From an uncultured virus (IMG/VR IMGVR_UViG_2690315925_000005) (taxonomy: Duplodnaviria > Heunggongvirae > Uroviricota > Caudoviricetes), in IMG/VR virus record IMGVR_UViG_2690315925_000005: 64,000 nucleotides of DNA, one strand, 5' to 3'. Of the stretch, positions 8,201 through 58,396 are shown one piece after another; the stretch's first letter is position 1; each line of letters opens with the position of its first letter. Position numbers and translations under genes: made by a program. A model generated the notes under the pieces. It ran no database searches and was not told where the DNA came from. It saw only the letters and a list, made by a program, of their open reading frames with translations.

Positions 8201-11200
8201 ATCGGCCAGCACCTGGCCGCCGGTGCGCTCTGCCTCAGCGCGCGCGGCGCCAAGGGTCAGGAAGTCGGCCGGTCGGCCGCGCTCGTCGGCGAGATACCAC
8301 TGATCATCGCGGCGGAGAAATCGACCGCCGTTCTGCTCGAGGAAGGCTTCGCCGCGGGCATCGATCTGCGGCTGCGCGAACGAGTAGGACCGGACCATTT
8401 CCCGCTGGGCCTGCGCTGACATGCCGGCGCGCAGGAAACCGTCGGCCTGGCTCAACAGGTCCCGAACCTCGGTCTCGGACCACTTGAGCGAGGGCATCAC
8501 GCGGCGCAGGAAGCGGCGCACCGCTGAAGCGACACGGCTGGTGAAGCTGTTCCTGATCCCCCGCTCGGCCATGACGGCGATCGCTTCCTTGGCGAAGGTC
8601 TCACGATCGACAGTGCCGTAGCGCCTGGTCACATCAGCCAGCACCGACTTCAATGCAGCGGTACCGGTTCCGTCAGCGGCGAGCTTGTCGATCGCGTCAA
8701 CGATCTGGGTCCAATCCTTGGCCCCCACCACGGACTCAACGCCGTAGTGCCCGATTGCCTCGTGGGCCAGCACCTGAGCAAAGCGCTGCTCGGTGGCGAT
8801 GTTGCCGGCGTTGATCCAGACGGTGGGCCGCCCGTCGTACACACCTTCGGCCCGGCGATAGCCCGGATCGACCTTGGCGCTGGCTGGGAAGTCCTCGGCC
8901 GAGCGCACAACGACCACGCTGGGCGCGTTCTCGCCCCAGTGCTGGGTCAGGTCGGCTTTGAGCTGCAGCGCGCGGTCAAAGTCCAGGCCGCTGCCGGCAG
9001 CGGGTGCAGCGGGTGCAGCGGATCGATTTACCCGCCCGGCGGGCCCAGGTGCTTCAGCTCCGGATCCTTCGCCAGCTGCTCCTTCGCCCACTGGCCGGAG
9101 GCCCGATACTCGGCCTTCAGCGACTCGATCTCGGAGGGCGTCAGCATCGACACGTCCCTTGTCGAGGGTGAGGATGGTGCGGGCTTCGGACTCGGTGAGG
9201 CCTTCGAAGCCGTAGCCGAACTGGTCGCGCCACCAGGGTTCGATTGATCCGAAACGTTCACGGACGTCGGCCAGGCTCTGGGAGTTGAGGGCGATTTTCC
9301 GCGAATAGTCCTTGCCGGTCAAAGCGGTGGCCAGCACAACCTTCCCGCCGTTGTCCTCGATGTGGGTTTTCAGCTGGGCCAGCGTGCCGCCCTGGGTCAG
9401 GGTGTCATCGATCAGGACATAGTCGCGGCCCTTCTCCACCTTGCCGGTGAACGGGGGCTGGTTGGCCAGCCGGTGCAGGGCGTCGCCGGCACTACGGTTG
9501 ACCTTCGCGGCCTGGACGATGTCTTCGGACACCTGCAGTCCCAGCCGCTGGGCCAGCACTTCGGCAGCCATCCGCGGAATCCGGTTGTTGCCCGTGGCTT
9601 CCTGGGACTGCACGGCCACCACCAGGGGCTTGCTGCCCTCCGGCAGCACAGCACGCACGTCCTCGACGAACTCCGGTGTGACGACGTCGCGCGCCACACG
9701 CAGCGCCGCCGCATCGTCGCCGGCCTTGGCTGCATCGTAGTCTGCATGCGCGCTCAGGCGCCCCGGACGATGTGCCGTGACAACGTCCGGGAAGTTGGCC
9801 TCCCACCCTCGCCGCGAGAAGAGAGGATCGGACGATCCCGCCGCGCTGTCCGCTGCTGCGGAGTCACCGCCCTGCCGGCCGGCCTCACCCGGCACAGACT
9901 TCGAAGTCTCAGAGTTCGATGCCGGTTTCGCCTTGGCGTCCCTCTTCACCACTGCCGCCTTGGCCGTCTTGGCGTCCCTTCTCGCCTTACGCTCAGGCTT
10001 CCCAAGCACGGAATCCAGATCGCGCGGAGCCGGGACAGTGCTATGCCAGCGTGGCACCTCATCCGGAAGAGCATTCCCTTCCTTGTCCACCATCTGCACC
10101 TTCACCTGCCAGCGCGGATCCTTCCCGGGCGGCCGGAACTCGATCACCCGATCCCGAGTGTTGCCATACGCGTTCACGATTCTTCCCGGCCGGAAGTAGG
10201 CACCAAGCGTGCCGATGTCATCCCGAACGTACTCGGGGGAGCCTGCCTTGATGCGGACCTTGGGCGTGTAGACCGGGCCGGGTTCATCTGCGGCTGGTGC
10301 TGCAGCAGCTGCAGGTTCACTTCCGCCCGTGGCCGGAACACTACCGGTTTCCGTCGGCACACCTGCGCTTTCGACAGGAGCGCTGACGCTCTGCCCCGTT
10401 TCACCTGCGTTCGGAACTGCCTGCGGCGCTGGCACTGCCTCCGCCGGCTTGCTCCTGGTGACGCGGCGAGTGGTCTTCTTCGGGTCGCGGACCCAAGACT
10501 TGAACTGCTCCTGCGACATTTCCTTGATGCCGCCGAGGCCGGTCCAGCCCTTCGAATAGTTGGCCAGGTAGGTGTCCCGCGCTTCCTGCTCCGAGGCGGT
10601 ACCCATGATCACCTTGTGCTCGTCGAAGGATCCATCCTTGTTCACCTGGTCCACCACGTATACCGGCAGGGCCGGATCCTCAGCGCGGTCGGTCATGAAT
10701 ACGTCGACGTGGTCCTTGTCCTTGCCGACCGTGCCCTTGAAGTAGCCGTAGTGGTTCTTCAGCGCCGGCCAGCGAGGATCCCGCTGGCTACCTGCAGGGT
10801 TCTCGATGCTGATGTCGTGGCCGTTGATGCGGACATGGCCTTTCTTATAGTTACCAGCTTGCTTCTGCGCATCCGACGGGAGCGGCAGATCATTCACAGG
10901 GTTGGTCGCGGCTTCTGCTGCCGCGGTGGCCACCTTCGGCGCATCCGCGGGCACGGCGGCGCTGTCCTGAGCAGGCGTCGCCTCGGCAAGGGGCTGCGCC
11001 GGAGCAGTCTCGGCCAGGCTGGGTGCCTCCGTCGTGCCAACGGCGCCCGGCTCCGAAACCGGTTCGCCAGACACACCGGTGCCCGATTGCAGCGGTGCAT
11101 CATTCGGTGCGAGCTGCAGGCCGCTGGCCAGCGGCGCCGACGCAGAGCGATCGGCAGGCGCTGCATCATCAAGCTGCAGGTCCGCAACCGGTGCCGCTTC

Positions 11201-13171
11201 CCTCAGCGGGTGCTGCGCCGGCGATGCCGGGCCTGCGGCCTCACTCCCAACCGAGCCGTCGGCATCCGTGGGCGGCTCGGTGAGGCCGCGTCGGCGCTCG
11301 CCCTTGACCTCGTCCAGCAGCGGGCGCACGCGGGCGCTGGGCAGGCCGTACTGGTCACGCATGGTGCGCAGCAGAGTCGGCGTGTTGATGCCTCCATGCG
11401 CCTCCACCTGGTACTGCAGACCGTTGTGCAGCAGTTGCTTGATGTCCGTCGAAGTCGGCTCGCGCAGGGCTTCGCCGGTCTGTGCATCGACCCACGGTGG
11501 CGCGGCTGGGGGCGGCAGCGGCGGTGCCGACGCCGCCGGCACTTCGGGAGTAGCCAGGCCTGCCTGGTCGCCCTGGACTTGCGGAGGCACGGGCTCGGCG
11601 ATTGCCGCGGCAGCCGGTGCGATGGCAGTAGGTTCGTTGAGCCGCCGAGCCTGGGACACCAGGTTGGCGATACCTGCGATCGAGCTGGGCGCGGCGTCGG
11701 GGAAAGGCACTGTCGGCTGCGGGCGGGCAGCAACCCGGCGCCCATCGAAGGGCGCGGACATGCCGCGGCCCTGCGGGAACCGCATTTCGGGTTCAGCCAT
11801 CACCTCCGGCCGGACACCACCGCGCGTGATGGTCCCATCCGGCGCCGCGGTCATCACTTCGGGCGGCGGGAGCGCGAGCATCTGTGGGATCGGGGGCGGC
11901 GGCAGCGATGGCGGCGTGGGAGCCGGCCTACGTGCCAAGCGCTCGCGCTCTGCATCGGCCTGCACAGCGGCCTGATTGTCGCCACGACTCGCGATGGCAC
12001 CGCCGGCGGCCATTCCGCCGCCCAGCAAGCCGCCGATCGCCGCGCCGGTACCCGCGGCCTCGGGCACGCCCTCCCATGCCGCCTGGGTCGGGTCGACCTG
12101 CCGCTGACCGAGATTGCCGGCCAACTGCGACCCGCCTTCCTGGAGGCCTTCTTCGACAGTCTCGCGCGCGGCACCGGCCAGCATCGCCTTCGGCTTGCGT
12201 GCCAGACCGCGGGTGAAGACGTCAGCCTCGAACGGCGCCGCGATGCGGCCGGCAATCGCAGCGATTGGTGCCGTAATGGCTTGCGCTTCCATCGACGCGC
12301 CACGCGCGATCGTTTCCTTCACTGTTTGCGGGTCGCCGCCGGCGGCAACCATGCGCTTGTACTCCGGATTCGCGTCCCACACCGATTGCGGCTGTGCCAT
12401 TGCCTGCTGGTACGTCTGCTGGCCTGCCGAACCGGTCTCCATCACCGTCGTCATGCCAGTGGCAGCGGCGGTCGCTGCCCGGTGTCCAGCGGCAGTCGCA
12501 GCCATTTCCGCGGCCTCGGTACCGAGGCCCTTGGCCAGCGCCCCGGCCATGGCCCGCTCGCCTGCCTGAGCCGCTGCAGCGCGCGTGCCAGCGCCCATCG
12601 TGGCGATGTTGGGCACCTGCTCGGCAAGGAAGTTTCCGATCAGCCGCGGCGAGGACAGCACCTTGCCAGCGCTGGCGAAGAAGCCCTTGGTGTCCTGCAG
12701 CTCCTGCTTTTCCTGCTTGAGCGCGTCCGACTGGCTCTCCCCGAGGTAGTCGGTTGCCATCTGCGTCGCCTTGGAGAGGCCAGCGCTGTCGGACCCAGCA
12801 CGACGTCCACCCAAGATTTCCGACGGCGTACCCGGCACCAGAGCGGCCGTCTCCGACGCCCCCTTTACGCCCAAGCGATCCAAGCCGCGCAGGCCCTGCC
12901 GCACCAGGTTCGTCGGCTCCAGAGAGTTTCGTTGCTCGATGGCGCCACCAATGATGTTCGCAGCGCCGGTGGCGATGCCGAGACCGGTGTCCTTGATGGC
13001 CTCGCCCCAGGTACGTTCAGGGCGCTTGGCCACCTTCTGGAAAGGGTCTCCCTGGACAGGTGAAAGCGTCGGACGGCGCGCGATCTTATTGGTGCCTGCC
13101 GGTGCTGGTGCCTGAGTCGGCGCCTGGCCTGCGCCGAAAGGATTCCCATCGACCTTCTCGAACGTTGCCAT
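5246..13171 (-). CDS. Giant polyvalent internal virion protein (InPase-like, PRTase, zincin HExxH and PLxRFG domains)
   Basis: 2641 aa; ISIENPAGSQR..HYGYFKGTVGKDKDHVDVF; VLIDDTLTQGGTL; LAHEAIGH; YFPLQRFG. Confidence 0.88.
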   Translation of the reverse strand: MATFEKVDGNPFGAGQAPTQAPAPAGTNKIARRPTLSPVQGDPFQKVAKRPERTWGEAIKDTGLGIATGAANIIGGAIEQRNSLEPTNLVRQGLRGLDRLGVKGASETAALVPGTPSEILGGRRAGSDSAGLSKATQMATDYLGESQSDALKQEKQELQDTKGFFASAGKVLSSPRLIGNFLAEQVPNIATMGAGTRAAAAQAGERAMAGALAKGLGTEAAEMAATAAGHRAATAAATGMTTVMETGSAGQQTYQQAMAQPQSVWDANPEYKRMVAAGGDPQTVKETIARGASMEAQAITAPIAAIAGRIAAPFEADVFTRGLARKPKAMLAGAARETVEEGLQEGGSQLAGNLGQRQVDPTQAAWEGVPEAAGTGAAIGGLLGGGMAAGGAIASRGDNQAAVQADAERERLARRPAPTPPSLPPPPIPQMLALPPPEVMTAAPDGTITRGGVRPEVMAEPEMRFPQGRGMSAPFDGRRVAARPQPTVPFPDAAPSSIAGIANLVSQARRLNEPTAIAPAAAAIAEPVPPQVQGDQAGLATPEVPAASAPPLPPPAAPPWVDAQTGEALREPTSTDIKQLLHNGLQYQVEAHGGINTPTLLRTMRDQYGLPSARVRPLLDEVKGERRRGLTEPPTDADGSVGSEAAGPASPAQHPLREAAPVADLQLDDAAPADRSASAPLASGLQLAPNDAPLQSGTGVSGEPVSEPGAVGTTEAPSLAETAPAQPLAEATPAQDSAAVPADAPKVATAAAEAATNPVNDLPLPSDAQKQAGNYKKGHVRINGHDISIENPAGSQRDPRWPALKNHYGYFKGTVGKDKDHVDVFMTDRAEDPALPVYVVDQVNKDGSFDEHKVIMGTASEQEARDTYLANYSKGWTGLGGIKEMSQEQFKSWVRDPKKTTRRVTRSKPAEAVPAPQAVPNAGETGQSVSAPVESAGVPTETGSVPATGGSEPAAAAAPAADEPGPVYTPKVRIKAGSPEYVRDDIGTLGAYFRPGRIVNAYGNTRDRVIEFRPPGKDPRWQVKVQMVDKEGNALPDEVPRWHSTVPAPRDLDSVLGKPERKARRDAKTAKAAVVKRDAKAKPASNSETSKSVPGEAGRQGGDSAAADSAAGSSDPLFSRRGWEANFPDVVTAHRPGRLSAHADYDAAKAGDDAAALRVARDVVTPEFVEDVRAVLPEGSKPLVVAVQSQEATGNNRIPRMAAEVLAQRLGLQVSEDIVQAAKVNRSAGDALHRLANQPPFTGKVEKGRDYVLIDDTLTQGGTLAQLKTHIEDNGGKVVLATALTGKDYSRKIALNSQSLADVRERFGSIEPWWRDQFGYGFEGLTESEARTILTLDKGRVDADALRDRVAEGRVSGLRPVGEGAAGEGSGAEAPGPAGRVNRSAAPAAPAAGSGLDFDRALQLKADLTQHWGENAPSVVVVRSAEDFPASAKVDPGYRRAEGVYDGRPTVWINAGNIATEQRFAQVLAHEAIGHYGVESVVGAKDWTQIVDAIDKLAADGTGTAALKSVLADVTRRYGTVDRETFAKEAIAVMAERGIRNSFTSRVASAVRRFLRRVMPSLKWSETEVRDLLSQADGFLRAGMSAQAQREMVRSYSFAQPQIDARGEAFLEQNGGRFLRRDDQWYLADERGRPADFLTLGAARAEAERTGGQVLADPVERGPRTWSVVLPNGAEVTRAARGRLFSMPPADALADIDAIQQGVEGEEVLARARQNLEGLSPSKVKDTLRPTWLGALATRHLTELGRDYFPTIDRYSDYLAEMQADRNKLQAEADTIAEAARQWASKNKAESRRLFDLMHQATMDGVDPSREYQALQFRMPGEKGLQEVNRKNVLHAIKVKQQQMRERSGDTKTNIMNEVKALKAMLKAEPRRRRQYAPLVEQWSQLSPEAKSFYLQFRDAYRARSEAVEEALVQRIEDLKGSDLVGGQVLSDSSRRMLVIKIREQFESARLQGVYFPLQRFGKFFVAAEKDGTNTFLMFESLNELDRAVKDLERREWAITARGQKMEGKATDAPSGTFVADVIDQLRTSHVSDAVQDQVYQLYLQTMPELSMRKHQIHRKSVPGFDPDAVRAFAYNMQHGSHQLARLRYAHKLQGVLIDLKEAQKEIQASPSVDTRKIVAGDALLEELGKRHEWIMNPTDSALTNLISSFGFTYYLGATPAAALVNVTQTALVSYPYLAARHGGVKAMNYLLAASRDAVRTVGNIQKTLTDPDELRAYQALEVAGAIEKTQAHNLAGIAEGGMTGYNPAWSKAMEIIGWGFHKTEVINREATGMAAYRLARADGKSFDEAVKFARDAIFDTHFDYSNANRARFMQSGTAKVLLMFRQYSLNMTWALGRMVWQATKGQDPQVRQVARRNLTGLLGMSALFSGAMGLPMMGMIMGALNGIQATFGDDDEPWDAETELRAFLTGMLGQSGADLLLHGPADKLTGANISGRVGLDSLWIRDADRELDGRGMFNNLLEQAAGPMGGVLKNVLVGKQQVDEGHIMRGVETMLPKGLKDMIKAGRYATQGVNTLRGDPVVADLSPWEILLQANGFAPEKVSRQYETTRALKNYEQHILDRRKSLVNAFAMALRNGDASDRASVLSKIGAFNKANPELAITSSGLQQSIKNRARYSARAEAGVILNPKLAARLNKAVTE

Positions 13172-43602: not shown

Positions 43603-44300
43603 CGGTCCAATCCTGCTGCTGCCATCTTGCCCGTCGCCGGCGGGTGGTCGTCATTGCCGGACTCCGCGGCGCCGCTACCGAAGATCTCCGCTATCTCGCG
43701 CTCCGCACGGCGCAACGCTTCAGGGCTGGCCGCTACCGGTGGGTACGCCGCAGCCTGACCCAGCACGGCCACAGGCTCTTCCGGCAACCTCCCGCCACGC
43801 ATCACGTATTCGCGGGCCTGGTCATAGGCCTCGCGCAACAGGCGATCGCTCTTGTCGGCGCTCGAGGTCCGGTACCGGTGGCCATCCAGGTACTGCCATA
43901 CCAGGCGCGTGAACCCGTCTCGGCGGCCGGTGTCGTTGCGTACTGCAGCGAAACTCGGCACACCGAGGCAACGTAGACGGAATTCCGGCAGGGTCGGTGG
44001 CCACGGATCAGCCGAGGCGATGCTCGACCCCAGGCCGGCGGCCAGCTGCTCACCGGTGAGGCCGGCAAGGCCTTTTGCCCAGGTCGCCGCAGCGCCGCCG
44101 CTGGGATCCTCGCCGTAGGCGCTGGTCCAGCGGTAGCCATAGATCTCAGCCATGCGCACCCACAGCGTTCGCGTAGCCCGGGCCGTCAAGGGCGCCTGCT
44201 GCGCCGGCGGCTGCGTCTGCCTCTGCAGCGGCGTCACGGAGCTCGTCTTCTTCTGCTCGACGTCGGACTCGTTCGGCAGCAGAGCCTGAATTGTTGGCAT
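43599..44300 (-). CDS. Replication protein P-like (putative helicase loader)
   Basis: LWVRMAEIYGYRWTSAYG..WPPTLPEFRLRC. Confidence 0.7.
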   Translation of the reverse strand: MPTIQALLPNESDVEQKKTSSVTPLQRQTQPPAQQAPLTARATRTLWVRMAEIYGYRWTSAYGEDPSGGAAATWAKGLAGLTGEQLAAGLGSSIASADPWPPTLPEFRLRCLGVPSFAAVRNDTGRRDGFTRLVWQYLDGHRYRTSSADKSDRLLREAYDQAREYVMRGGRLPEEPVAVLGQAAAYPPVAASPEALRRAEREIAEIFGSGAAESGNDDHPPATGKMAAAGLDR

Positions 44301-45192
44301 GGTCGGTCCCCTCGGGTTTCGGTGTTACGGGCAGTGCCAGGCCTGCAGCCATCGTCTGGCGCAGGGAGCGGTTGAGGTCGTGGCCATCGGCCGTGAGCTG
44401 GCGGAATCGCGGCTGCAGCTCCAGCCAGCTGCTGATCGTCATCGGCTTTCCCAGCACACGGCGATGACGCACGAACCTGGCCAGGACTTGCGGGTCCAGA
44501 CCCGCCGGCAAACGTGGGATGCCCATCAGCTCGCGATTGACCTCGTCGGCGGTGAGCTGCGGCATCGCCGCATCGTCGTCGCGCGCCTGCGCGTTTGACG
44601 ATTCAATGACCTTTACTGACCTTTCATGACCTTTAGGGTCCGTCTCGCGGACCGGTTGAGTACGCGAGACGGACCGGTCAGGTCCGCCAGACGTACCGGT
44701 CGAGTTCGCGAGACGCACCGGTCGTTCTTGCGTACCGGTATCTCCCGCGTACCGGTCGGCGCCTTCAGTCTCTTCCGACCCGTCCGTGACGCGCACCGGT
44801 TCGGCATCCACACCGGTACTCGTGGCGGACCGGTCAACCCCTTCGCCGCTCTCGGACCGGTCCGTCTGGCGCACCGGTTTGGACGCGCGCCGCGGCTTCG
44901 ATGCGAACACTTCGGGGTCCAGGCGGCCAAGGTTGAGGCTGTACCGGTTGCTGTACTTGGTGCCGCCGGCATCACTGCCGCCACGTCGAATGGTCAGCAC
45001 CTGGTTGTCTTCCAGCCACGCGATCGCGCTGAGCAGTGCTGTCTTGCTCAGGCAGGTCTTCTCGATCAATGTGGTGAAGCCCGGGAAAGCCATTCCGAAG
45101 TCGTCTGCGTGCCACGCGATCGCCATCAGCACCGCCTTTGCGGGCGGCGGCATCTGCAGTGGCCAGCAGAGCTTCGTGATTTCGTTGCTCAT
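44146..45192 (-). CDS. Replication initiator (O-like, N-terminal HTH)
   Basis: AKAVLMAIAWHADDFG.AFPG..L; internal iteron array. Confidence 0.8.
   Translation of the reverse strand: MSNEITKLCWPLQMPPPAKAVLMAIAWHADDFGMAFPGFTTLIEKTCLSKTALLSAIAWLEDNQVLTIRRGGSDAGGTKYSNRYSLNLGRLDPEVFASKPRRASKPVRQTDRSESGEGVDRSATSTGVDAEPVRVTDGSEETEGADRYAGDTGTQERPVRLANSTGTSGGPDRSVSRTQPVRETDPKGHERSVKVIESSNAQARDDDAAMPQLTADEVNRELMGIPRLPAGLDPQVLARFVRHRRVLGKPMTISSWLELQPRFRQLTADGHDLNRSLRQTMAAGLALPVTPKPEGTDHANNSGSAAERVRRRAEEDELRDAAAEADAAAGAAGALDGPGYANAVGAHG
44651..44878. repeat. Iteron array, probable phage origin
   Basis: 11 perfect ACCGGT plus one ACCCGT at 17/22/27-bp spacing. Confidence 0.8.
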
Positions 45193-45209
45193 TACGCAGG
45201 CCTATCCCG

Positions 45210-45734
45210 TTACGGGCAGCCCACCACGACGACGGGGTTTGCCCTGCCAGGCGCGCTCCATTCGTTGGGGCTGCTGAACTGCGCGCGACCCTGTCCATGG
45301 ACGACACCCTGGCGCGGCTCCGGCGCGGGCGTGCTGAGGCGTTCTAACTGGCTCGCAACGCGCTCGGAGGCAGCCGCGCATTGCGCCTGCACGTCGAGCA
45401 GCTGCTGCATCAACGCCTGCCGGCGATGCTCGGTGGGAATGGGACGGACCTCATAGCCGAGATCTGCGGCCATGGCCAGGAAGAGCTGGTGCCGGCCAAA
45501 GCGGCGCATCAGCGCCCACAGCTCACCGATCTTGAAGAACTCGGCCTTGTTGGGGTTGAGGCAGCTGTTGAACTTGGCCACAGCGCTGGCCCAGTCCTTC
45601 AGCTTCTCCTGATCCCAGAAGCCGTTGTCCAGCAGGAACTGGATCATTTCATTGCGGGTATGGGCATCGACGTCGCAGGTGGCCTTCAGGGCCGCCAGGG
45701 CGTCCTGCAGCCAGGTTTCTTCGATCCAGGGCAT
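45210..45734 (-). CDS. CII-like regulatory protein
   Basis: GAGGA SD; NSCLNPNKAEFFKIGELWALM..LFLAMAADLGYE; lies between cro region and O-like gene. Confidence 0.6.
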   Translation of the reverse strand: MPWIEETWLQDALAALKATCDVDAHTRNEMIQFLLDNGFWDQEKLKDWASAVAKFNSCLNPNKAEFFKIGELWALMRRFGRHQLFLAMAADLGYEVRPIPTEHRRQALMQQLLDVQAQCAAASERVASQLERLSTPAPEPRQGVVHGQGRAQFSSPNEWSAPGRANPVVVVGCP

Positions 45735-45815
45735 GGGAGTCCTCGGGGTTTGGGCGGGTCCTCCGGCTGGCAGAATGGCGGTGCGACCCAACCCAACCAC
45801 CACCTGGAGAGACCC

Positions 45816-46136
45816 ATGGATGCAATTGCGGAACTGGAACTGCGGCAGCTGCTGGCGGGCTGCCAGGCTCAAATCAAGGCGTTGCACGAGCAACTGGAAA
45901 TCACCGCCGGCAGTGCACTGGCGACAAACGTCGCCCTGCATGGGCTCATTTCGGTCCTTCCAGATCTCGACCTCGCAGGAAGAGCGCTCGCAACCGTGCG
46001 ACGAGACTTCGAAGGCGCATCGGACCCCGCGACCGCTGAGCGGGCGATGTCGTTCGAGGCGACTTTTGACAACCTGCAGAAGACCATCGAGAACCGGAAG
46101 GCCGTGCTGGCGCGTCAGGCTCAATCTCTCCGCTGA
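45816..46136 (+). CDS. Antisense cassette gene A1 (106 aa, helical)
   Basis: Motif CCTCCGGCTGGCAGAAT at 45760, CCAACCAC leader, GGAGA SD. Confidence 0.75.
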   Translation: MDAIAELELRQLLAGCQAQIKALHEQLEITAGSALATNVALHGLISVLPDLDLAGRALATVRRDFEGASDPATAERAMSFEATFDNLQKTIENRKAVLARQAQSLR

Positions 46137-46215
46137 AGCAGAAGCCCGGCCGCTGCTCGGCGGCCGGGTGATCTACGCCGGCGGCGAAGCTCGGCTTTTC
46201 AGATTCGTCAGTCAT
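45946..46215 (-). CDS. Lytic-strand partner ORF B1
   Basis: GGAG SD; ATGA-coupled at both ends; 191-nt 3' overlap with A1. Confidence 0.5.
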   Translation of the reverse strand: MTDESEKPSFAAGVDHPAAEQRPGFCFSGEIEPDAPARPSGSRWSSAGCQKSPRTTSPAQRSRGPMRLRSLVARLRALFLRGRDLEGPK

Positions 46216-46296
46216 TCAGCGCTCCGTAGGTGCTGGGTACGCATCTGTGTTGGTCGGCTGGCAGAATCGGCGTTCCCCCAGTAATTGACGTTCCTC

Positions 46297-46638
46297 ATGA
46301 CCCCATCCGAACTCGAAGCCCGATTCGCCCAATACGACGAACGAATCGCCGCGTTGGAGGCTGAAAAACAGGCGAACAGCTGGTTCACGCTGGCCGTCAT
46401 TGGCAGTCATCCCGACACAGAGATGCTGCTGGAGGTAGTTCGCGCCGCCATCCAAACACTGCGCGGCAAAACCTCGCCCGAAGCCCCGGCCGGCGTGGCC
46501 GCTGCAACCGTGCTTCGCCTGTTGGAGATCGAGCGTCAGATCCTGAAGGCGCAGCAGAGCCGACAGGAGCTGGCGGAAGCGGCGGAGGCGGAGCGGCTGT
46601 TGGAACAGCAACGCGCTGGATCTGAGCAGGAACACTAG
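46297..46638 (+). CDS. Antisense cassette gene A2 (113 aa, helical)
   Basis: Motif TCGGCTGGCAGAAT at 46254; protein-like composition; weak SD. Confidence 0.7.
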   Translation: MTPSELEARFAQYDERIAALEAEKQANSWFTLAVIGSHPDTEMLLEVVRAAIQTLRGKTSPEAPAGVAAATVLRLLEIERQILKAQQSRQELAEAAEAERLLEQQRAGSEQEH

Positions 46639-46747
46639 AAGCTGGCTGCCGCTGCTCCAGCGCGCGCACCCGGCGCTCAAGCGCGCCGATGCGCTGCAGC
46701 GCCGCGGTCATGACCGTCGGAGTCGATTGGGGCAGGCCCTTAGTCAT
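46397..46747 (-). CDS. Lytic-strand partner ORF B2
   Basis: AAAGGAG SD; coiled coil RIGALERRVRALEQ; 242-nt overlap with A2. Confidence 0.6.
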   Translation of the reverse strand: MTKGLPQSTPTVMTAALQRIGALERRVRALEQRQPASSVPAQIQRVAVPTAAPPPPLPPAPVGSAAPSGSDARSPTGEARLQRPRRPGLRARFCRAVFGWRRELPPAASLCRDDCQ

Positions 46748-46843
46748 GGGCGACTCCTTTCTCCACAACCGATGCTGGCAGTGGCGGCGATCTCCGGGCA
46801 GGCTTGGTGGTACCACCCAACCACACCAACCACGGAGATCACC

Positions 46844-47197
46844 ATGGAAGCGAGCACTCGCTTGGACACCCTCGAGAGGGCCGTTATCGCGCTGCAGACC
46901 CAGAACTCGCAGATCGTTGCTTCTTTGACGGACGTCACCGAAGCCATCAACATCGCGTTCAAGGACCTGTACCTGAGCGAGCAGAAGAAGGACGGCATGT
47001 GGGCTGCCCAGCGCGCCATCATCGAGTCCCTCCTGGCGCACGCCGACGCAGCCACGCGTCAATATGCGCAAGCAAAGCTGCAAGTCGCATACGAGGTGTG
47101 GGACGCGAAGAACCGGGATCCCGAATTCCTTGAAGAGTTTGCGGCGGCCGCGCGTTCAGTATTTCCTGACATTCGGCTAGAGCCCGCCGCTGAGTAA
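46844..47197 (+). CDS. Antisense cassette gene A3 (117 aa, helical)
   Basis: Motif CTCCGGGCAGGCT at 46792, CCAACCAC twice, GGAGA SD. Confidence 0.75.
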   Translation: MEASTRLDTLERAVIALQTQNSQIVASLTDVTEAINIAFKDLYLSEQKKDGMWAAQRAIIESLLAHADAATRQYAQAKLQVAYEVWDAKNRDPEFLEEFAAAARSVFPDIRLEPAAE

Positions 47198-47408
47198 GCA
47201 GCTGCAAACCCTGGTCTTCCAGTGCCGCGATGCCTGCATGGACTTGGGCCATCGCGGTGTCAAACGGCTCGGTGTCGAATTGTTGGTAGAACGCGACCTG
47301 GGCCTCCAGCTCGCGGACCCTCTGCCGCAGCGCGCGCAGCTCCCTGCGATCCCGGCCGTGGCCTCGATCCTCCCCTTCGCGAGGATTGCTGAGGTGTCGA
47401 CGGGCCAT
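47019..47408 (-). CDS. Lytic-strand partner ORF B3
   Basis: GGAG SD; coiled coil ELRALRQRVRELEAQ; 179-nt overlap with A3. Confidence 0.6.
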   Translation of the reverse strand: MARRHLSNPREGEDRGHGRDRRELRALRQRVRELEAQVAFYQQFDTEPFDTAMAQVHAGIAALEDQGLQLLTQRRALAECQEILNARPPQTLQGIRDPGSSRPTPRMRLAALLAHIDAWLRRRAPGGTR

Positions 47409-47489
47409 CAGCATTTACTCCAAGAGGCGGCGCCCTCCGGCTGGTAGGCTGGGATTTCCACACCACCAACCACGAACCGGAGAAGCGCC

Positions 47490-47867
47490 ATGGCATTGCC
47501 AGCTGACGTCCGCATAGACCAGCTGCACGAACTGCTGGGGGAACAGGAAAAGCAGCGCGAAGCGCTGAACATTCGAATCCACGACCTAGAGCGGATCCAA
47601 GCCGACCACGCAAAAGTCATCGAGCGACTGGTGTGGCTTTTGGATGGCGCGCGTGGAAAGACTGCGGTAATGGAAACCGTCATCCCTCTTCTCCTGGAAT
47701 CAAGCGATCAACGGACCCGGGATCGCGTACAGACGGCGCTGGAGCTGCGCTGGCGCCAGGACCGAGCTCTGGGCGCAGGTGCGACTCCCCGCTATGAGGC
47801 GAAGTTCGAGAAAGCAGCTCTCGAAGTTGCCCCGCAAGCATCGCTTCCCCGACAGCACAGTCGCTGA
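47490..47867 (+). CDS. Antisense cassette gene A4 (125 aa, helical)
   Basis: Motif CCTCCGGCTGGTAGGCT at 47434, CCAACCAC leader, GGAGA SD. Confidence 0.75.
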   Translation: MALPADVRIDQLHELLGEQEKQREALNIRIHDLERIQADHAKVIERLVWLLDGARGKTAVMETVIPLLLESSDQRTRDRVQTALELRWRQDRALGAGATPRYEAKFEKAALEVAPQASLPRQHSR

Positions 47868-48114
47868 TACCTGCAAGCGACTGGTCAAAGCGTTGCTGGG
47901 AAGCGGTGATTTCCTCCGACAGGCGAGTCCTGTCCGCCGCCTCGCGCTGCGCTCGAGCGCGGATGCGGGCAAGGACGGCCTGGTGGCGCTCCTCTGCCGC
48001 GGCTGTTTCCATTACGGTCTGCTTGTTCAGCCAGTTGCGGAGCCAGACCCGGGGGTTGAGGCGATCCGGAAGGTGCAGGGGCCAACGGCTGCCCCGAGGG
48101 GTCTCAGCGACCAT
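47680..48114 (-). CDS. Lytic-strand partner ORF B4
   Basis: GGAGG SD; helical N-terminal half; 188-nt overlap with A4. Confidence 0.6.
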   Translation of the reverse strand: MVAETPRGSRWPLHLPDRLNPRVWLRNWLNKQTVMETAAAEERHQAVLARIRARAQREAADRTRLSEEITASQQRFDQSLAGISDCAVGEAMLAGQLRELLSRTSPHSGESHLRPELGPGASAAPAPSVRDPGSVDRLIPGEEG

Positions 48115-48192
48115 AGCGGCCTCCCCACGTATGCCCAGCAATGGCTACCATTGGCCGTGCGGAATCCACCGCACAGTTCAAGGAACGTCGAA

Positions 48193-48333
48193 ATGGCAAA
48201 GAACGAACAGACCGGCAAGAAGGTCGCAACCACTGCGTCCAAGCTGTTGAGCAATCCGAGCTCATCGAAGGCAGTGAAGTCGGTCGCGGCATCCGCGCTG
48301 ACCCAGGCCCCGAACAAGCCGAAGAAGAAGTAA
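48193..48333 (+). CDS. Antisense cassette gene A5, 46-aa basic protein
   Basis: MAKNEQTGKKVATTASKLLSNPSSSKAVKSVAASALTQAPNKPKKK; AAGGA SD; TACCAT -10 at 48146. Confidence 0.7.
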   Translation: MAKNEQTGKKVATTASKLLSNPSSSKAVKSVAASALTQAPNKPKKK

Positions 48334-48339
48334 TCAGCG

Positions 48340-48630
48340 TCATTCCAAGGCCCTCAGCGCAATGAGGGCCTTGGTCGGAATCGTCATAGCGCCGCAGCGC
48401 TGAGGTTCCTTTTCCCTGGACCAGCTACCAGCCACCACCACCGCCTCGGCCGATGCAGCGACCAGCAGACCTGCCGACCGGCAGGCCAGCGGCGAGGCAT
48501 CCACGTCGCCGTGATGCCACCCATCGGCCCGGTGGGAGTCCACCCAGTCGGCCAAGACGACCCGCCCAACGAGAGCCTGATGCCCGTTGAGCTCCCCATC
48601 CTGAGGATTGGCAAGGCTTCGCGTGTCCAT
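48340..48630 (-). CDS. Phage hypothetical protein
   Basis: DWVDSH..GW..CRSAGLL..TIP; TGATG-coupled to cro. Confidence 0.7.
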   Translation of the reverse strand: MDTRSLANPQDGELNGHQALVGRVVLADWVDSHRADGWHHGDVDASPLACRSAGLLVAASAEAVVVAGSWSREKEPQRCGAMTIPTKALIALRALE

Positions 48631-48950
48631 CAGGCTGTCTCCAGCGGCACGATGCGGCCGGCGTCCACATCGCCGCTCGGTTCGGCGCGCCGTTCCATAA
48701 CCGGATCCATAACCGGATCCGCCTGCGCCACCACTTCGGCCAGGCCGCCCCGCTCCAGGCCCTCGAAAGCGTTCAGCGCCTCGATCAGCTGCTGAAGGCT
48801 GGCAATCGTCGGATTCGTGATCTGCCCGTGCGCCAGCTTCGTCAGCCACGAATAGCCGATGTCCGGGCTCTGCCGGGCGATCTCGGCGTACTTCCCTTCA
48901 TGCGCACGCAGGCGCACCACGGTTTGATGCAAGAGGGTATCGGCGTCCAT
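48630..48950 (-). CDS. Cro-like HTH regulator
   Basis: YAEIARQ..IGYSWLTKLAHGQITNPTIASLQQL; divergent from repressor. Confidence 0.8.
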   Translation of the reverse strand: MDADTLLHQTVVRLRAHEGKYAEIARQSPDIGYSWLTKLAHGQITNPTIASLQQLIEALNAFEGLERGGLAEVVAQADPVMDPVMERRAEPSGDVDAGRIVPLETA

Positions 48951-48956
48951 GACACC

Positions 48957-49016
48957 AACCTATCATTCTAATGCTAGGCAATCAAGCATCGAAGAGCGTT
49001 CAGCCATCACTAGCAT
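48957..49016. promoter_or_regulatory. Divergent pR/pRM-like promoters with operator
   Basis: Minus strand TTGATT-N17-TAGGTT; plus strand TCGAAG-N16-TAGCAT; operator TATCA-N6-TGCT at 48961. Confidence 0.7.
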
Positions 49017-49023
49017 GGTAGGT

Positions 49024-49413
49024 ATGGCTAAACGTCCCTCGAGTGCAGATGTCATCGCCGCCAATGTGCGCCGATTGATGAAGCACCTGAACCTCTCGCA
49101 GGCCGAACTCGGCCGCAAAGCCGGGGTTGCGCAAACTCTCCTGTCGGGGCTCCTGAGCCCGGACGGCGCCTCCAAGAACCCGACATCTTCGACCGTCGAC
49201 AAGCTTGCCGACGCTTTCAAAATCACCCCTTGGAAGCTGCTGGTTCAGGACATCACGCTGGACAACCTCATGGACGAGGAAATCGAGCGCCTGGTGGACG
49301 CTTTCGCCACCGTGCCAGCAGAGGGGCGCCGAACAATTCTGCGGGTGGCGGATGCTGAAGTTCGCTATGCCCAGGTTCCCGCGACCGTTCCGATCAAGAA
49401 CACAGGGACATGA
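49024..49413 (+). CDS. CI-like XRE repressor without S24 peptidase domain
   Basis: NVRRLMKHLNLSQAELGRKAGVAQTLLS..NPTSSTVDKLADAF. Confidence 0.85.
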   Translation: MAKRPSSADVIAANVRRLMKHLNLSQAELGRKAGVAQTLLSGLLSPDGASKNPTSSTVDKLADAFKITPWKLLVQDITLDNLMDEEIERLVDAFATVPAEGRRTILRVADAEVRYAQVPATVPIKNTGT

Positions 49414-49419
49414 GCAGCC

Positions 49420-49764
49420 ATGGGAATACTCGACTTTCTTGGCAGTGCGGCGGGCGTTGTGACAATGCAGACGGGCGCGGATGTGTTCATCCATCGTCAT
49501 ACACGCGTGGTTACCTTCAACCTTCCATCCCATTGGCGTGACCACGCCAACAAGCTCGTCAAAGAACGCTTTCAACAGCAGCTCGTTCAGTCCGAATTTG
49601 ATGCGGCACTGCTGAAACTCGCAGTGTTCTGGACCTGCGCTATGCAAAGTGACCGAGTCCGCGCCGAGCACTTCGCCGACGCCATGTTTGACCTACGCAC
49701 CGCGGCAGGCGGCCAGATCACGCCCGGTCTGTCCCTCGAAGTGATGCGGCTGACCAACCACTAA
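49420..49764 (+). CDS. Hypothetical protein co-transcribed with repressor
   Basis: 114 aa, starts 6 bp after cI stop. Confidence 0.65.
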   Translation: MGILDFLGSAAGVVTMQTGADVFIHRHTRVVTFNLPSHWRDHANKLVKERFQQQLVQSEFDAALLKLAVFWTCAMQSDRVRAEHFADAMFDLRTAAGGQITPGLSLEVMRLTNH

Positions 49765-49805
49765 AGCTCGATCAATCAGCTGCTTAGCATCACATCACAT
49801 CAATC

Positions 49806-49851
49806 TATCATTTTAGTGCTTGACTGACGGATGATCTATCACTATGTTGCT
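49806..49851 (+). promoter_or_regulatory. pL-like promoter with two operators
   Basis: TTGACT-N17-TATGTT (49820-49848); TATCA-N6-TGCT at 49806 and 49837. Confidence 0.8.
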
Positions 49852-49880
49852 AGCCATCCCAAGCACGGATGGTTGAGCAC

Positions 49881-50372
49881 ATGTCTGCACTGTCTTCGTC
49901 GCTGTACCTGGCACTGGGGGCTCTCGGGGCCACCGGCCTTGGCGCACTCTTCTCCCCATCGTCCCCTTCCACAGACGAACCCGGCCAGGCCGTCCGGGCA
50001 CCAGCTGCACTGGTGATCACCAGCCCGCGCATCTGCGCGGCGCTGGAGGTCTATACCCTGGCCAGCGAGAACGACTGGGGCCTGCGCACCACCATTGCCC
50101 AGGCGATGCTCAACGGCTTCAACGACACCGGCCGTGTGCCGGACTGCGCCGCCGGCGTGTCCGCCGCGCTGGCCAAGGACTTCTCTCCCTACCGCTGGCA
50201 GCTTGCGCTCGATGCCGTCGACGCGGTTGTCGCCGGCACCTACTCCGTTTCCCCCGACGCGTGCGCCCGGGCCAATACCGTCGTCCCCCTGTCGACGGAA
50301 AAAGCCACCTCCCCCGTGGTGGCCCGGGCGCGGTGCGTCATCTATGACCTGGCTTTCGTGGAGGTGCACTGA
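49881..50372 (+). CDS. Exported SleB/Hydrolase_2-like protein, possibly inactive
   Basis: Signal/anchor; CAALEVYTLASE..TIAQAMLN resembles CLA..IY.EARGE..AVA.V.LNR. Confidence 0.5.
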   Translation: MSALSSSLYLALGALGATGLGALFSPSSPSTDEPGQAVRAPAALVITSPRICAALEVYTLASENDWGLRTTIAQAMLNGFNDTGRVPDCAAGVSAALAKDFSPYRWQLALDAVDAVVAGTYSVSPDACARANTVVPLSTEKATSPVVARARCVIYDLAFVEVH

Positions 50373-50803
50373 TGGCCGCCACCGAACGTCACTGCCGCGT
50401 CTGCAGCTGCACTGAGCTGCAGGCCTGCCCCGGTGGTTGCTCCTGGGCCGGGGCCGACCTTTGCAGCAGCTGCGCCGCAGCTGCAGGCCCTAACGCCGAA
50501 GGCGCCATGGCGGTCGTCGCGCGCCAGCGCCTGCTGATCGCCGGCAAGGCCATCAAGCTGAGCCGCACCGAGGCCGTCGTGATGAAGGCCCTTGTCGCGA
50601 CCCCCGATCGCCTCGTGGAAATCGATGCGCTGCATGCGGCGATGTACCCAGACAGCAAGCCGCCGTCGCGCGAGTCCAACGTCCTTCAGGTGCTGGTCTC
50701 GCGCGTGCGCCGCAAGCTCTCAGCTGCTGGCCATAAGCACGCAATCGAGACCATCCGCCTGCGCGGCTACCGCTTCGTGATGCCCCAAGGCGGTGCTGCA
50801 TGA
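50372..50803 (+). CDS. Cys-rich domain plus OmpR-type winged-helix protein
   Basis: CRVCSCT..C..GCSW..CSSC; LSRTE..NVLQVLVSRVRRKL..IETIRLRGYRF. Confidence 0.8.
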   Translation: MAATERHCRVCSCTELQACPGGCSWAGADLCSSCAAAAGPNAEGAMAVVARQRLLIAGKAIKLSRTEAVVMKALVATPDRLVEIDALHAAMYPDSKPPSRESNVLQVLVSRVRRKLSAAGHKHAIETIRLRGYRFVMPQGGAA

Positions 50804-56999: not shown

Positions 57000-57278
57000 G
57001 TGAGTAACTACGACGCCCCCGCACGAGGATTGCCGAGGCCCGGATCCCCCGCGAACCTGCGCCCGGTCCGGTTCGTCACGCTCAAACAGTTCGAGACGCT
57101 GACCGGCTACACGGTCGACGCGGTCAACTCGAAGATCAAGCGTGGCGATTGGCTGGAGGGCGCCGTCTTCATCAAGGCGCCAGATGGAAGAAACCTGATC
57201 GACCTGGAGGGGTACGAAGAGTGGGTAATGCACGGCAAGGCGGCGTCAGGCCAGCTACACAGAGCAGCATCGCAATAG
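57000..57278 (+). CDS. xis: Excisionase
   Basis: FETLTGYTVDAVNSKIKRGDWLEG..KAPDGRNLIDLEGYEEW; overlaps int start. Confidence 0.85.
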   Translation: MSNYDAPARGLPRPGSPANLRPVRFVTLKQFETLTGYTVDAVNSKIKRGDWLEGAVFIKAPDGRNLIDLEGYEEWVMHGKAASGQLHRAASQ

Positions 57279-58396
57279 ACTTCTACTATAGGGGCAAGCG
57301 TTGCCGTGAGCGGATCAAGCTCGCCCCGACCGCTCGGAATCTGCGCTACTGCGAAAATCTGCTGGGGCAGATCAAGGTCGAGATCGAGAAAGGCACCTTC
57401 GACTATGCCACCCACTTCCCCGGCAGCAAGCGCGCGGTGCAGGTGGCAGAGAAGCCAGCGGCCCTCGACACCCTGGAGCAGGTGCTGACTCGGTGGCTGG
57501 CACAGAAGGAGCCTGAGCTCGAGCACAGCAGCCTGATTGGCTACCGGCGCATCGTCGAGAACATCCTGGTGCCGCGCTGCGGAGCGATTGCGTTGCGTGA
57601 CTTCAACCGTATCGCCCTGAAGGAGCTGGTGGCCACATTCGACGAGTCGACGTCGGCCAAGCGCATCAACAACGTTCTGGGCCCGCTCCGCGGCGCCCTC
57701 GATGAGGCCGTAGCCGACGACTTGATCCCCAGCAATCCCCTCGACGGGTTCCGGGTGAAGCGGCGCGCCAAGGCCAACGCGCGCGAGGAGGTCGACCCCT
57801 TCACGCCGGAGGAAGTCCAGGCGATCCTGGCCGCCTGTCGCGAGGACCAGGTCCGCAATTACTGCCAGTTCAACTTTGCCACGGGCCTGCGCACCTCGGA
57901 AATGATCGGTCTCTGCTGGTCGGACATCGATTGGCGCAAGGGCACAGTCAAGATCCGGCGCGCCTGGGTCATGGGCAAGATGAAGGCCCCCAAGACCGAG
58001 TCCGGCGTGCGCGAAGTGCAGCTGCTGCAGCCGGCGATCGACGCCCTGAAGGCTCAGCGGGCCCACACCGCCACCGCCGGCGAGTTCGTCTTCCACGATC
58101 CCAGGACGAATGCCCGATGGGGGTCCGACCAAAGCATCCGCGCTGGCGAATGGCAGCGCGCGCTGCGCAAGGCCGGGGTGAGGTACCGGTACCCGTATCA
58201 GATGCGCCACACCTTCGCCTCACAAGCGCTCAGCGCTGGCGAGAACGTCATGTGGGTGGCCCGGCAGATGGGGCATCGGGACTGGACGATCACAGCGAAA
58301 AAGTACGGCCGTTGGATCCCGTCGATGGTCCCCGATGCGGGCGCGAAGGCCGCGGCTGTCTGGAAGCCCGAGCTTATGCATTCGGGCATCAAGTAG
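57221..58396 (+). CDS. int: Tyrosine integrase with arm-binding domain
   Basis: SIAIDFYYRGKRCRE; TGLRTSE, PKT, YQMRHT, QMGH, KKYG. Confidence 0.93.
   Translation: MGNARQGGVRPATQSSIAIDFYYRGKRCRERIKLAPTARNLRYCENLLGQIKVEIEKGTFDYATHFPGSKRAVQVAEKPAALDTLEQVLTRWLAQKEPELEHSSLIGYRRIVENILVPRCGAIALRDFNRIALKELVATFDESTSAKRINNVLGPLRGALDEAVADDLIPSNPLDGFRVKRRAKANAREEVDPFTPEEVQAILAACREDQVRNYCQFNFATGLRTSEMIGLCWSDIDWRKGTVKIRRAWVMGKMKAPKTESGVREVQLLQPAIDALKAQRAHTATAGEFVFHDPRTNARWGSDQSIRAGEWQRALRKAGVRYRYPYQMRHTFASQALSAGENVMWVARQMGHRDWTITAKKYGRWIPSMVPDAGAKAAAVWKPELMHSGIK

Follow-up and report, generated by a model that had tools for sequence, protein, structure and literature searches.

Antisense accessory genes in the early regions of prophages are already known, as is antisense control near cII. 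In phage lambda, the oop RNA and pRE give antisense control at cII inside the pR operon, and tR1 is located upstream of cII. Here, a tandem array of small antisense genes is described, which extends from position 45760 to 48333 in a 64,000-nucleotide (nt) stretch of DNA from an uncultured virus of the Caudoviricetes (IMG/VR record IMGVR_UViG_2690315925_000005). The whole stretch of 64 kilobases (kb) is designated as the window. It is a lambdoid prophage of a Stenotrophomonas-type host with high GC content (~0.63–0.67), and the array fills the whole interval between its Cro-like and CII-like genes. The array genes, A1 to A5, are encoded on the plus strand, which is the strand of the repressor (cI), and the minus strand is that of the early lytic (pR-type) operon, including the frames B1 to B4 that overlap the 3' ends of A1 to A4. 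New in this locus are the tandem array on one shared leader, two protein families (groups I and II), the near-universal presence of group I after cro, and the read-through tails of the B frames. Narrow literature searches, covering mostly titles and the beginnings of abstracts, returned no description of this locus.

The array is similar to lambda oop/pRE in having a promoter-like element beside cII that points toward cI, and its transcripts would overlap the 3' ends of early genes upstream of cII and O. It differs in that several antisense units encode conserved proteins of 106–125 amino acids (aa), and in that they are placed between cro and cII, not after cII.

Morons of the lambda rexAB/sieB type, including Sie-like genes, share with the array the promoter-like signals, the orientation against the lytic operon, and the variable presence. 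Deep RNA sequencing (RNA-seq) coverage in presumed lysogens is a further likeness, and a Sie-like gene occupies a comparable antisense slot at locus L068. Unlike morons, the array is tandem, with up to five genes on one conserved leader, group I is nearly universal, and the composition is not atypical. No similarity of the array proteins to any named moron product was found in PHROGs or with PADLOC.

According to the main text of the report on Pseudomonas phage JBD26, tab is located between the terminase genes, the target of Tab is the tape measure protein, and Tab is in turn bound by anti-Tab (PMC10884400). As far as that text goes, the array would be alike in outline, with a constitutive prophage gene with its own promoter adjoining a gene of the lytic operon. 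The array differs in lacking sequence similarity to this system, and its partners are early genes whose overlapping parts appear unselected. The words "opposite" and "antisense" have 0 occurrences in that main text, and the analogy to opposite-strand pairs drawn in the initial annotation of the array could not be confirmed from it.

Coding Genes on the Repressor Strand

The initial annotation had listed plus-strand open reading frames (ORFs) of 106–125 aa and a fifth variant, with minus-strand ORFs overlapping their 3' ends by 179–242 nt, and all of these are present. The four larger plus-strand genes are A1 (45816–46136, 106 aa), A2 (46297–46638, 113 aa), A3 (46844–47197, 117 aa), and A4 (47490–47867, 125 aa).

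The comparison drew on 29 viral loci obtained through the CII-like protein, the record of the window itself (L001) among them, and on 5 genome loci. In total, 31 Cro-CII intervals were cut from these loci, of which 27 are unique. The variable sites at codon positions 1, 2, and 3 are 29, 24, and 55 of 107 each for A1 (5 unique alleles), 11, 10, and 23 of 114 for A2 (10 unique alleles), and 22, 21, and 48 of 126 for A4. In the part of A3 outside its overlap with B3, two comparisons gave 5/8/8 and 7/8/9 variable sites of ~60–69 each. The GC content by codon position is typical in the A frames, with 0.41–0.45 at the second position. The concentration of substitutions at the A third positions shows A1–A4 to be real coding genes under purifying selection.

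Promoter-like Elements and Leaders

The four upstream motifs reported at 45760, 46254, 46792, and 47434 were all found there, and the CCAACCAC..GGAGA leaders ascribed to three units precede A1, A3, and A4. The divergent control region before A1 (45735–45815, plus strand) includes the −10-like element TGGCAGAAT at 45768–45776, a CA-rich leader at 45787–45805, and GGAGA at 45806–45810. On the same strand, TGGCAGAAT is repeated before A2 (46259–46267). The element before A3 is GGCAGGCT (46797–46804), followed by a CA-rich leader (46812–46833) and GGAGA, and that before A4 is TGGTAGGCT (47441–47450), also followed by a CA-rich leader and GGAGA.

These elements are conserved among the relatives. 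Six plus-strand families, including A6 of relatives, contributed 44 unique upstream regions; in 43 of them a −10-like octamer ends 29–39 nt before the start codon, and the 44th is one letter off the octamer pattern. The variants counted were GGCAGAAT, GACAGAAT, GGTAGGCT, GGCAGGCT, and GGTAGGAT, and the expectation is 0.008–0.019 per 21-nt segment, a figure to be read with the upstream sequences being related and not independent. All 21 unique A2 upstream regions contain GGCAGAAT or GACAGAAT 29–33 nt before the start. The main elements of the A genes are TGGCAGAAT or GGTAGGCT. In A1, A2, A4, and A6, a T precedes the octamer, generating TGn plus a hexamer with A at position 2 and T at position 6, as in extended −10 elements. 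In all families, apart from most A2 alleles, the octamer is followed by a CA-rich leader and GGAG. The 85-nt leader beside cII is 85–90% conserved in relatives, upstream of A1 in some and of A6 in others, and a GC-rich block 5' of the −10-like element is conserved in the leaders of A1, A3, A4, and A6.

In the window alone, the 15-nt motif was matched 3 times (expected, 1.43), a number equalled or exceeded in 13 of 100 shuffles, which is weak and not significant. CCAACCAC has 8 matches against 2.17 expected, 4 of them within the array, and none of 100 shuffles reaches 8. The composite of a −10-like element, a CA-rich leader, GGAG, and ATG is present in the 64 kb only at A1, A3, and A4. Judging from these patterns, the A genes have conserved promoter-like elements and leaders, that is, putative promoters. 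The claims that the plus-strand genes are real, have promoter-like signals, and are opposed to the lytic operon are upheld.

TGGCAG is not regarded as a sigma-54 element, since on visual inspection the GG/GC spacing does not fit. Rfam showed no match at E ≤ 1 over 44000–50500, and the leaders are not known RNA genes. In four relatives (L002, L006, L013, and L024), four tandem 11-nt repeats similar to GTGCGAAATGC, then GGGGTGCAATTTACGCGC, are present upstream of the TGGCAGAAT element. These repeats are located in the segment that separates the start of cII from the first plus-strand gene; they are absent from the window, and could bind an activator such as CII.

Partner Frames on the Minus Strand

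Each minus-strand ORF had been regarded as a partner gene. This view stands for the 5' parts of B2, B3, and B4, which are ordinary, translationally coupled genes of the early (cro) operon, B2 probably so. It fails for B1, which has no support as a gene, and for the overlaps, in which selection follows the A frame.

B3 (47019–47408, minus strand; 129 aa, or 131 aa from the ATG at 47414) belongs to the MARRHLSNPREGE family. In its part outside A3, 24 of 70 sites are variable at B3 position 3, against 12 of 71 and 15 of 70 at the other positions. The first 38 aa are present in 21 of the 29 viral loci, mostly directly after cro, and in most relatives the gene starts right at the cro stop (TGATG). 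The family has three C-terminal forms: two of them (78–99 aa) overlap no A gene, and the third (128–131 aa) always accompanies A3, to which its tail is antisense.

B4 (47680–48114, minus strand, 144 aa) shows the same pattern in its own part (47868–48012), with 39 of 48 sites variable at B4 position 3 against 26 of 49 and 21 of 48. Its tail, antisense to A4, is rich in P, G, S, and A. B4 immediately follows cro in L003 and L011, starting right at the cro stop. B2 (46397–46747, minus strand, 116 aa) is probably a real early-operon gene in its 5' part (46639–46747), in which the GC content at B2 third positions is 0.84, and its tail is antisense to A2. The B2 start overlaps the B3 stop (ATGA) in 5 unique relatives; in L016-type relatives, the B2 frame has no proper start. 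B2 and B3 have similar heptads (ALERRVRALE and LRQRVRELE), as had been pointed out, and a 32-nt stretch at 46655–46686 in B2 and 47304–47335 in B3 is 75% identical.

B1 (45946–46215, minus strand, 89 aa) is probably not a gene. Its GC content by codon position is 0.68/0.64/0.57, and its third positions have the fewest variable sites (24 of 107). The part of B1 outside the A1 overlap is a hairpin of nine G-C pairs at 46145–46168, just past the A1 stop, which is terminator-like on the minus strand with the stem CCCGGCCGC and the tail CTTCTGCTTC.

The overlaps with the A 3' ends are 191 nt (B1), 242 nt (B2), 179 nt (B3), and 188 nt (B4). In the A2/B2 overlap, 18 of 81 sites are variable at A2 position 3 against 10 of 81 at B2 position 3. 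At A3 positions 1, 2, and 3 in the A3/B3 overlap, L013 and L024 differ at 1/59, 2/60, and 9/60 sites, and the window and L002 at 11/59, 19/60, and 31/60. The corresponding values for A4 in the A4/B4 overlap are 11/62, 14/63, and 22/63. As position 3 of the A frame is position 2 of the B frame in all three pairs, the B tails change amino acids freely. The tails are thus judged to be under no selection of their own; B2–B4 simply meet no stop codon until 179–242 nt inside the abutting A gene.

RNA-seq Contig Depth

RNA data were available as unstranded assembled contigs of an L003-type relative from three runs (X3, X6, and X10) of three studies. The array, cro, and the cI side had contig k-mer depths of 166, 63, and 124, and the O gene had depths of 16–20, 0.2–4.6, and 3.5–8.9 in these runs; overall, this was given as an 8–20-fold excess of the array over the replication gene. 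In X3, the depth switches from 17 to 166 at ~45796, ~20 nt past the −10-like element. From the raw reads of another run, X21, only 2 reads matched. Contaminating DNA would give even depth, and the depth contrast therefore indicates transcription. Since a lysogen must express cI, and a single contig of uniform depth extends over the array, cro, and the cI side, it would be simpler to assume that the array is transcribed from the plus-strand genes.

Two Families of Helical Proteins

The plus-strand proteins had been described as sharing one layout, a coiled coil followed by a hydrophobic helix. Their helical nature is borne out; the single layout is not, as hhalign indicated two families, and neither is the hydrophobicity, as the proteins are soluble and mostly acidic. 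From sequence and predicted structure, A1–A4 make up two uncharacterised helical families: group I (A1 and A2, with the loop signature I..HP) and group II (A3 and A4). A2 was aligned with A6 and A7 of relatives at 89–92% probability. A1, with an LP variant of the HP motif, matches group I weakly by hhalign (37–45%) and clearly with the wider profile (E 3.2e-13). A3 and A4 were aligned at a probability of 88.6% over 104 columns, with conservation to the C-terminus. The family members are 96–132 aa long, with grand average of hydropathy (GRAVY) values from −0.87 to +0.20, and the isoelectric point is 4.4–6.9 in 43 of the 47 members listed. AlphaFold2 (AF2) predicted three helices for A2, with SHPD in the first loop (mean predicted local distance difference test (pLDDT) score 92), and four helices for A3 (pLDDT 83).

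The homologues of A2 and of other array proteins are named only "hypothetical protein", from S. maltophilia. PADLOC with 12 proteins gave nothing below E 0.0034, the value of a coiled-coil match to JetC, and a profile search against PDB sequences gave coiled-coil matches only. An exhaustive profile search over 1.84 billion entries revealed only 56 cluster representatives at E ≤ 0.001, all but three of them 71–165 aa long. The 26 representatives that were inspected share ALIAxHPDP, in which I, H, and P are nearly invariant. With the remote members P0035, P0024, and P0029 as queries, two marginal loci and nothing else were found in viral contigs.

Three candidate identities were rejected. The HPD loop recalls the J-domain; its third residue varies (D, N, E, Q, R, A, or S), there is no DnaJ match in Pfam, and no J-domain is among the Foldseek matches. 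The anti-adaptor IraP (PF10796) is alike in being a small coiled-coil helical protein, and it was suggested by ESM Atlas (0.88 for A2 and 0.78 for A3, below the threshold of 0.9). None of 27 group I members matches PF10796 at E ≤ 1. Type I toxin-antitoxin systems do not fit, as the A proteins are not small hydrophobic membrane toxins; soluble, mostly acidic helical bundles are predicted by AF2.

Group I is also encoded by host chromosomes. With the group I profile, 72 of 301 genomes of the host family have a match at E ≤ 1e-4 (70 of 299 without the unpublished G088 and G201, on which nothing else reported here depends). Of 23 loci examined, 4 are just downstream of a same-strand HSP20 gene (L056, L061, L062, and L066), and a group I gene is beside a Usp gene in L048 and L050. 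Two of the 23 are prophage contexts (the L065/L068 and L046/L067 types). Several chromosomal subtypes are well conserved between genomes. The position of these '..THPDP..' genes beside HSP20 and Usp genes hints at a role of the host branch in stress or proteostasis.

Variation and Placement among Relatives

The CII-like protein is 64–100% identical over the 29 viral loci (87–100% in 26 of them). Of the 26 viral loci with a Cro-like protein, 22 show 92–99% identity, and L012, L025, L027, and L028 show 57–82%. The length of the Cro-CII interval ranges from 954 to 2898 nt. At least 16 gene orders are present among the 27 unique intervals, the largest array being that of the window; this count is a floor, as an A1-like gene in L014, A5 in L009, and an A4-like gene in L037 escaped the patterns. 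The order is slot-like: A1 or A6 adjoins cII, followed by A2, and then by A3, A4, or A7.

Of the 27 intervals, 25 contain group I and 11 contain group II, and all hits (44 of 44 and 12 of 12, respectively) are on the cI strand. Cassette number and order vary on near-identical backbones, and invariant content, which would have spoken against the initial annotation, was not observed. As in morons, presence and absence vary among close relatives, though group I itself is in 25 of 27. On this comparison, the Cro-CII interval appears to be a recombination-prone slot. The conserved B starts and A leaders look like junctions of cassette exchange.

Two unrelated elements show a similar placement. L065/L068 encodes a P22_Cro-type gene, two antisense group I genes, a CII-like gene (phrog_4834), and an antisense Sie-like exclusion gene. 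The last is a superinfection exclusion gene (L068:9175–9807, minus strand; phrog_8545) just after the CII-like gene. In L046/L067, a gene with a helix-turn-helix (HTH) is followed by an antisense group I gene, and then by DksA-like and primase genes. Antisense slots around cII seem to be used repeatedly.

Prophage Map and Flanking Genes

The left flank of the array is the CII-like activator gene (45210–45734, minus strand; PF06892 Phage_CP76, E 7.3e-6; phrog_101 CII-like, E 8.6e-11). Close relatives of this protein are encoded by S. maltophilia and related genomes. The O-like initiator gene (44146–45192, minus strand) is located next to it. At the right flank are the Cro-like HTH gene (48630–48950, minus strand; phrog_9425, E 9.6e-5) and, on the strand of the A genes, the cI-like HTH repressor gene (48949–49413; PF01381 HTH_3, E 4e-7; phrog_8 and phrog_3), whose true start is probably later. 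In their longest forms, the cI-like and Cro-like ORFs have overlapping start codons (48949–48950); this leaves no operator space, and so at least one true start must be further in. The cI-like protein is only 33–41% identical in many relatives whose Cro-like protein is 92–99% identical, which is odd for an immunity pair.

A5 (48193–48333, plus strand, 46 aa) is another kind of gene with another kind of leader. It is rich in Lys, Ser, and Ala, matches phrog_5079 (unknown function) with E 3.7e-12, and has an 89% identical counterpart in L009. An A5-like ORF (51% identity, 35 aa) is present at L060:872–976 (plus strand), ~500 nt upstream of a group I gene (L060:1501–1731, plus strand). L060 is a distant genome with 54% GC, and this pairing echoes the window. 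Convergent with A5 is gX (48340–48627, minus strand, 95 aa), the first gene after cro, with a start coupled to the cro stop and a GC content of 0.74 at third positions. It is also present in L009, and it showed no match in PHROG or PADLOC. A perfect 10-base-pair hairpin (AAGGCCCTCA..TGAGGGCCTT) is located at 48349–48374, between A5 and gX and within the final gX codons.

In the map of the whole window, the minus strand encodes cro, cII, O, a P-like loader, a resolvase, terminase, portal, and head genes, and the plus strand encodes the cI-like gene, an exonuclease, an HNH gene, and an integrase (57221–58393). A DNA search of the phage collection with 45200–49450 gave no match. A 2641-aa ORF (5249–13171, minus strand) includes DarB-like antirestriction/helicase, lytic-enzyme-like, and virion RNA-polymerase-like regions, as indicated by PHROG matches.

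Discussion

It is considered probable, with some reserve, that the array consists of self-promoted repressor-strand genes whose products act by binding proteins, and whose convergent transcripts also counteract read-through from pR. Four or five small genes, A1–A5, would be expressed in the lysogen from their own extended −10 type promoters. Their products would bind a phage or host protein, and may tune the lysis-lysogeny switch or exclude other phages. The A transcripts, being antisense to B2–B4, would counteract transcription running from pR into cII and the replication genes, comparable to the effect of lambda oop on cII. The hairpin at 46145–46168, at the position of lambda tR1, would add to the block of read-through upstream of cII.

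Several observations weigh against this explanation. In a two-hexamer sigma-70 scan, the only two promoters called were near cI and none preceded an A gene, and no recognisable −35 element is present upstream of the A genes. The deep contigs also span cII in X6 and X10, and they are unstranded and derived from a relative. Pfam, PHROGs, and PADLOC searches with the A and B proteins, gX, and remote group I members revealed only phrog_5079 for A5 and coiled-coil noise. Foldseek gave no match at E ≤ 0.001 (A2 against PDB and BFVD, A3 against PDB), the best being an uncharacterised Gordonia phage protein with E 0.24. The composition of the array is like that of its surroundings (GC 0.630 at 46001–48000 versus 0.654 and 0.608 in the adjacent segments), not atypical as in a moron. 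For group I, the near-universal presence and the chromosomal relatives speak more for a core regulator than for a moron. Even in diverged A3 and A4 alleles, the B ORFs remain uninterrupted, and a few residues of their tails are conserved, so that a function of the tails is possible; this conservation follows from that of the A protein on the opposite strand, and no sign of selection on the tails themselves was found.

A further, more novel reading is rather unlikely. It sees the array as a multi-copy antisense gate in the immunity region, in which the A transcripts would pair with the early RNA and, together with the hairpin at 46145–46168, hold back pR. Group I would be a new regulator or exclusion class, recruited from an hsp20-adjacent host family and kept downstream of cro in several unrelated temperate phages.

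Rather improbable, too, is a CII-dependent establishment transcript analogous to pRE, by which the A proteins would favour lysogeny transiently in a cIII-like way, for example by stabilising CII or blocking lytic functions. The first element (45768–45776) is on the cI strand, 34 nt away from the start of cII (45734), and points to cI, which agrees with lambda oop/pRE in geometry only. The missing −35 hexamer would be expected at activator-dependent promoters, the GC-rich block is conserved in the A1, A3, A4, and A6 leaders, and group I is almost always in the slot across lineages. However, the deep contig coverage in ordinary cultures fits constitutive expression better, the element is repeated before each gene, the A2 upstream regions have nothing but the −10-like part in common with the others, and no CII-binding repeats were identified in the window.

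The initial annotation proposed defence/counter-defence pairs in the style of Tab/anti-Tab, in which A is a lysogen-expressed exclusion or abortive-infection factor and B, as a protein or antisense RNA, neutralises it on induction. This is quite unlikely, as nothing tested supports it: the A and B proteins gave no match to defence families in PADLOC, to Pfam, or to a named PHROG, B1 is probably not a gene, and the partners appear unselected over the paired regions. The arrangement itself is suggestive, with B genes in the lytic operon, A genes on the repressor strand, and variable cassette content, and the main text on JBD26 describes tab as constitutive from its own promoter and anti-tab as expressed from the lytic operon (PMC10884400). 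The long B3 accompanies A3 in all 7 unique A3 intervals and B4 accompanies A4 in 4 of 4, a co-occurrence that follows from the physical overlap. The 78–99 aa B3 forms, non-overlapping and beside other A genes, indicate that a B gene does not depend on one particular A gene. Chromosomal relatives of group I are conserved, and its family is broad, unnamed, and common to hosts and phages, which makes a role in defence alone less likely. The near-universal presence of group I and these relatives agree with a regulatory or physiological function no less well than with defence.

That the A genes encode anti-defence proteins, similar to anti-CRISPR or anti-restriction factors and expressed from strong promoters of their own at infection and in lysogens, is very unlikely. 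Small, acidic, helical proteins in variable arrays with promoter-like signals would suit such a role, and the N-terminal halves evolve fast, as in the part of A3 outside the overlap. Against it, no HTH regulator gene of the aca kind is present inside the array, the chromosomal group I relatives are placed operon-like after hsp20, and there is no similarity to solved structures. That the plus-strand ORFs are shadows of minus-strand genes, as the long open frames on both strands of a GC-rich genome and the Shine-Dalgarno-like sequences of the B ORFs might suggest, is hardly credible, being contradicted by the A third-position substitutions, the typical GC content of the A frames, the homologues elsewhere including chromosomes, and the high AF2 confidence.

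The locus is of interest in several respects. If the A genes are expressed in the lysogen, the array would be a compact natural expression platform, in which one promoter-leader serves interchangeable small genes inside a decision circuit. Two unnamed protein families are added, and group I is kept antisense after cro in at least three phage backbones and is common in host chromosomes. The B frames call for caution in the annotation of GC-rich genomes, as a long partner frame may combine a real gene at one end with unselected read-through at its other end. Few studies have dealt with Stenotrophomonas prophages, and the Cro-CII slot is a sensible place to seek exclusion or switch-tuning functions.

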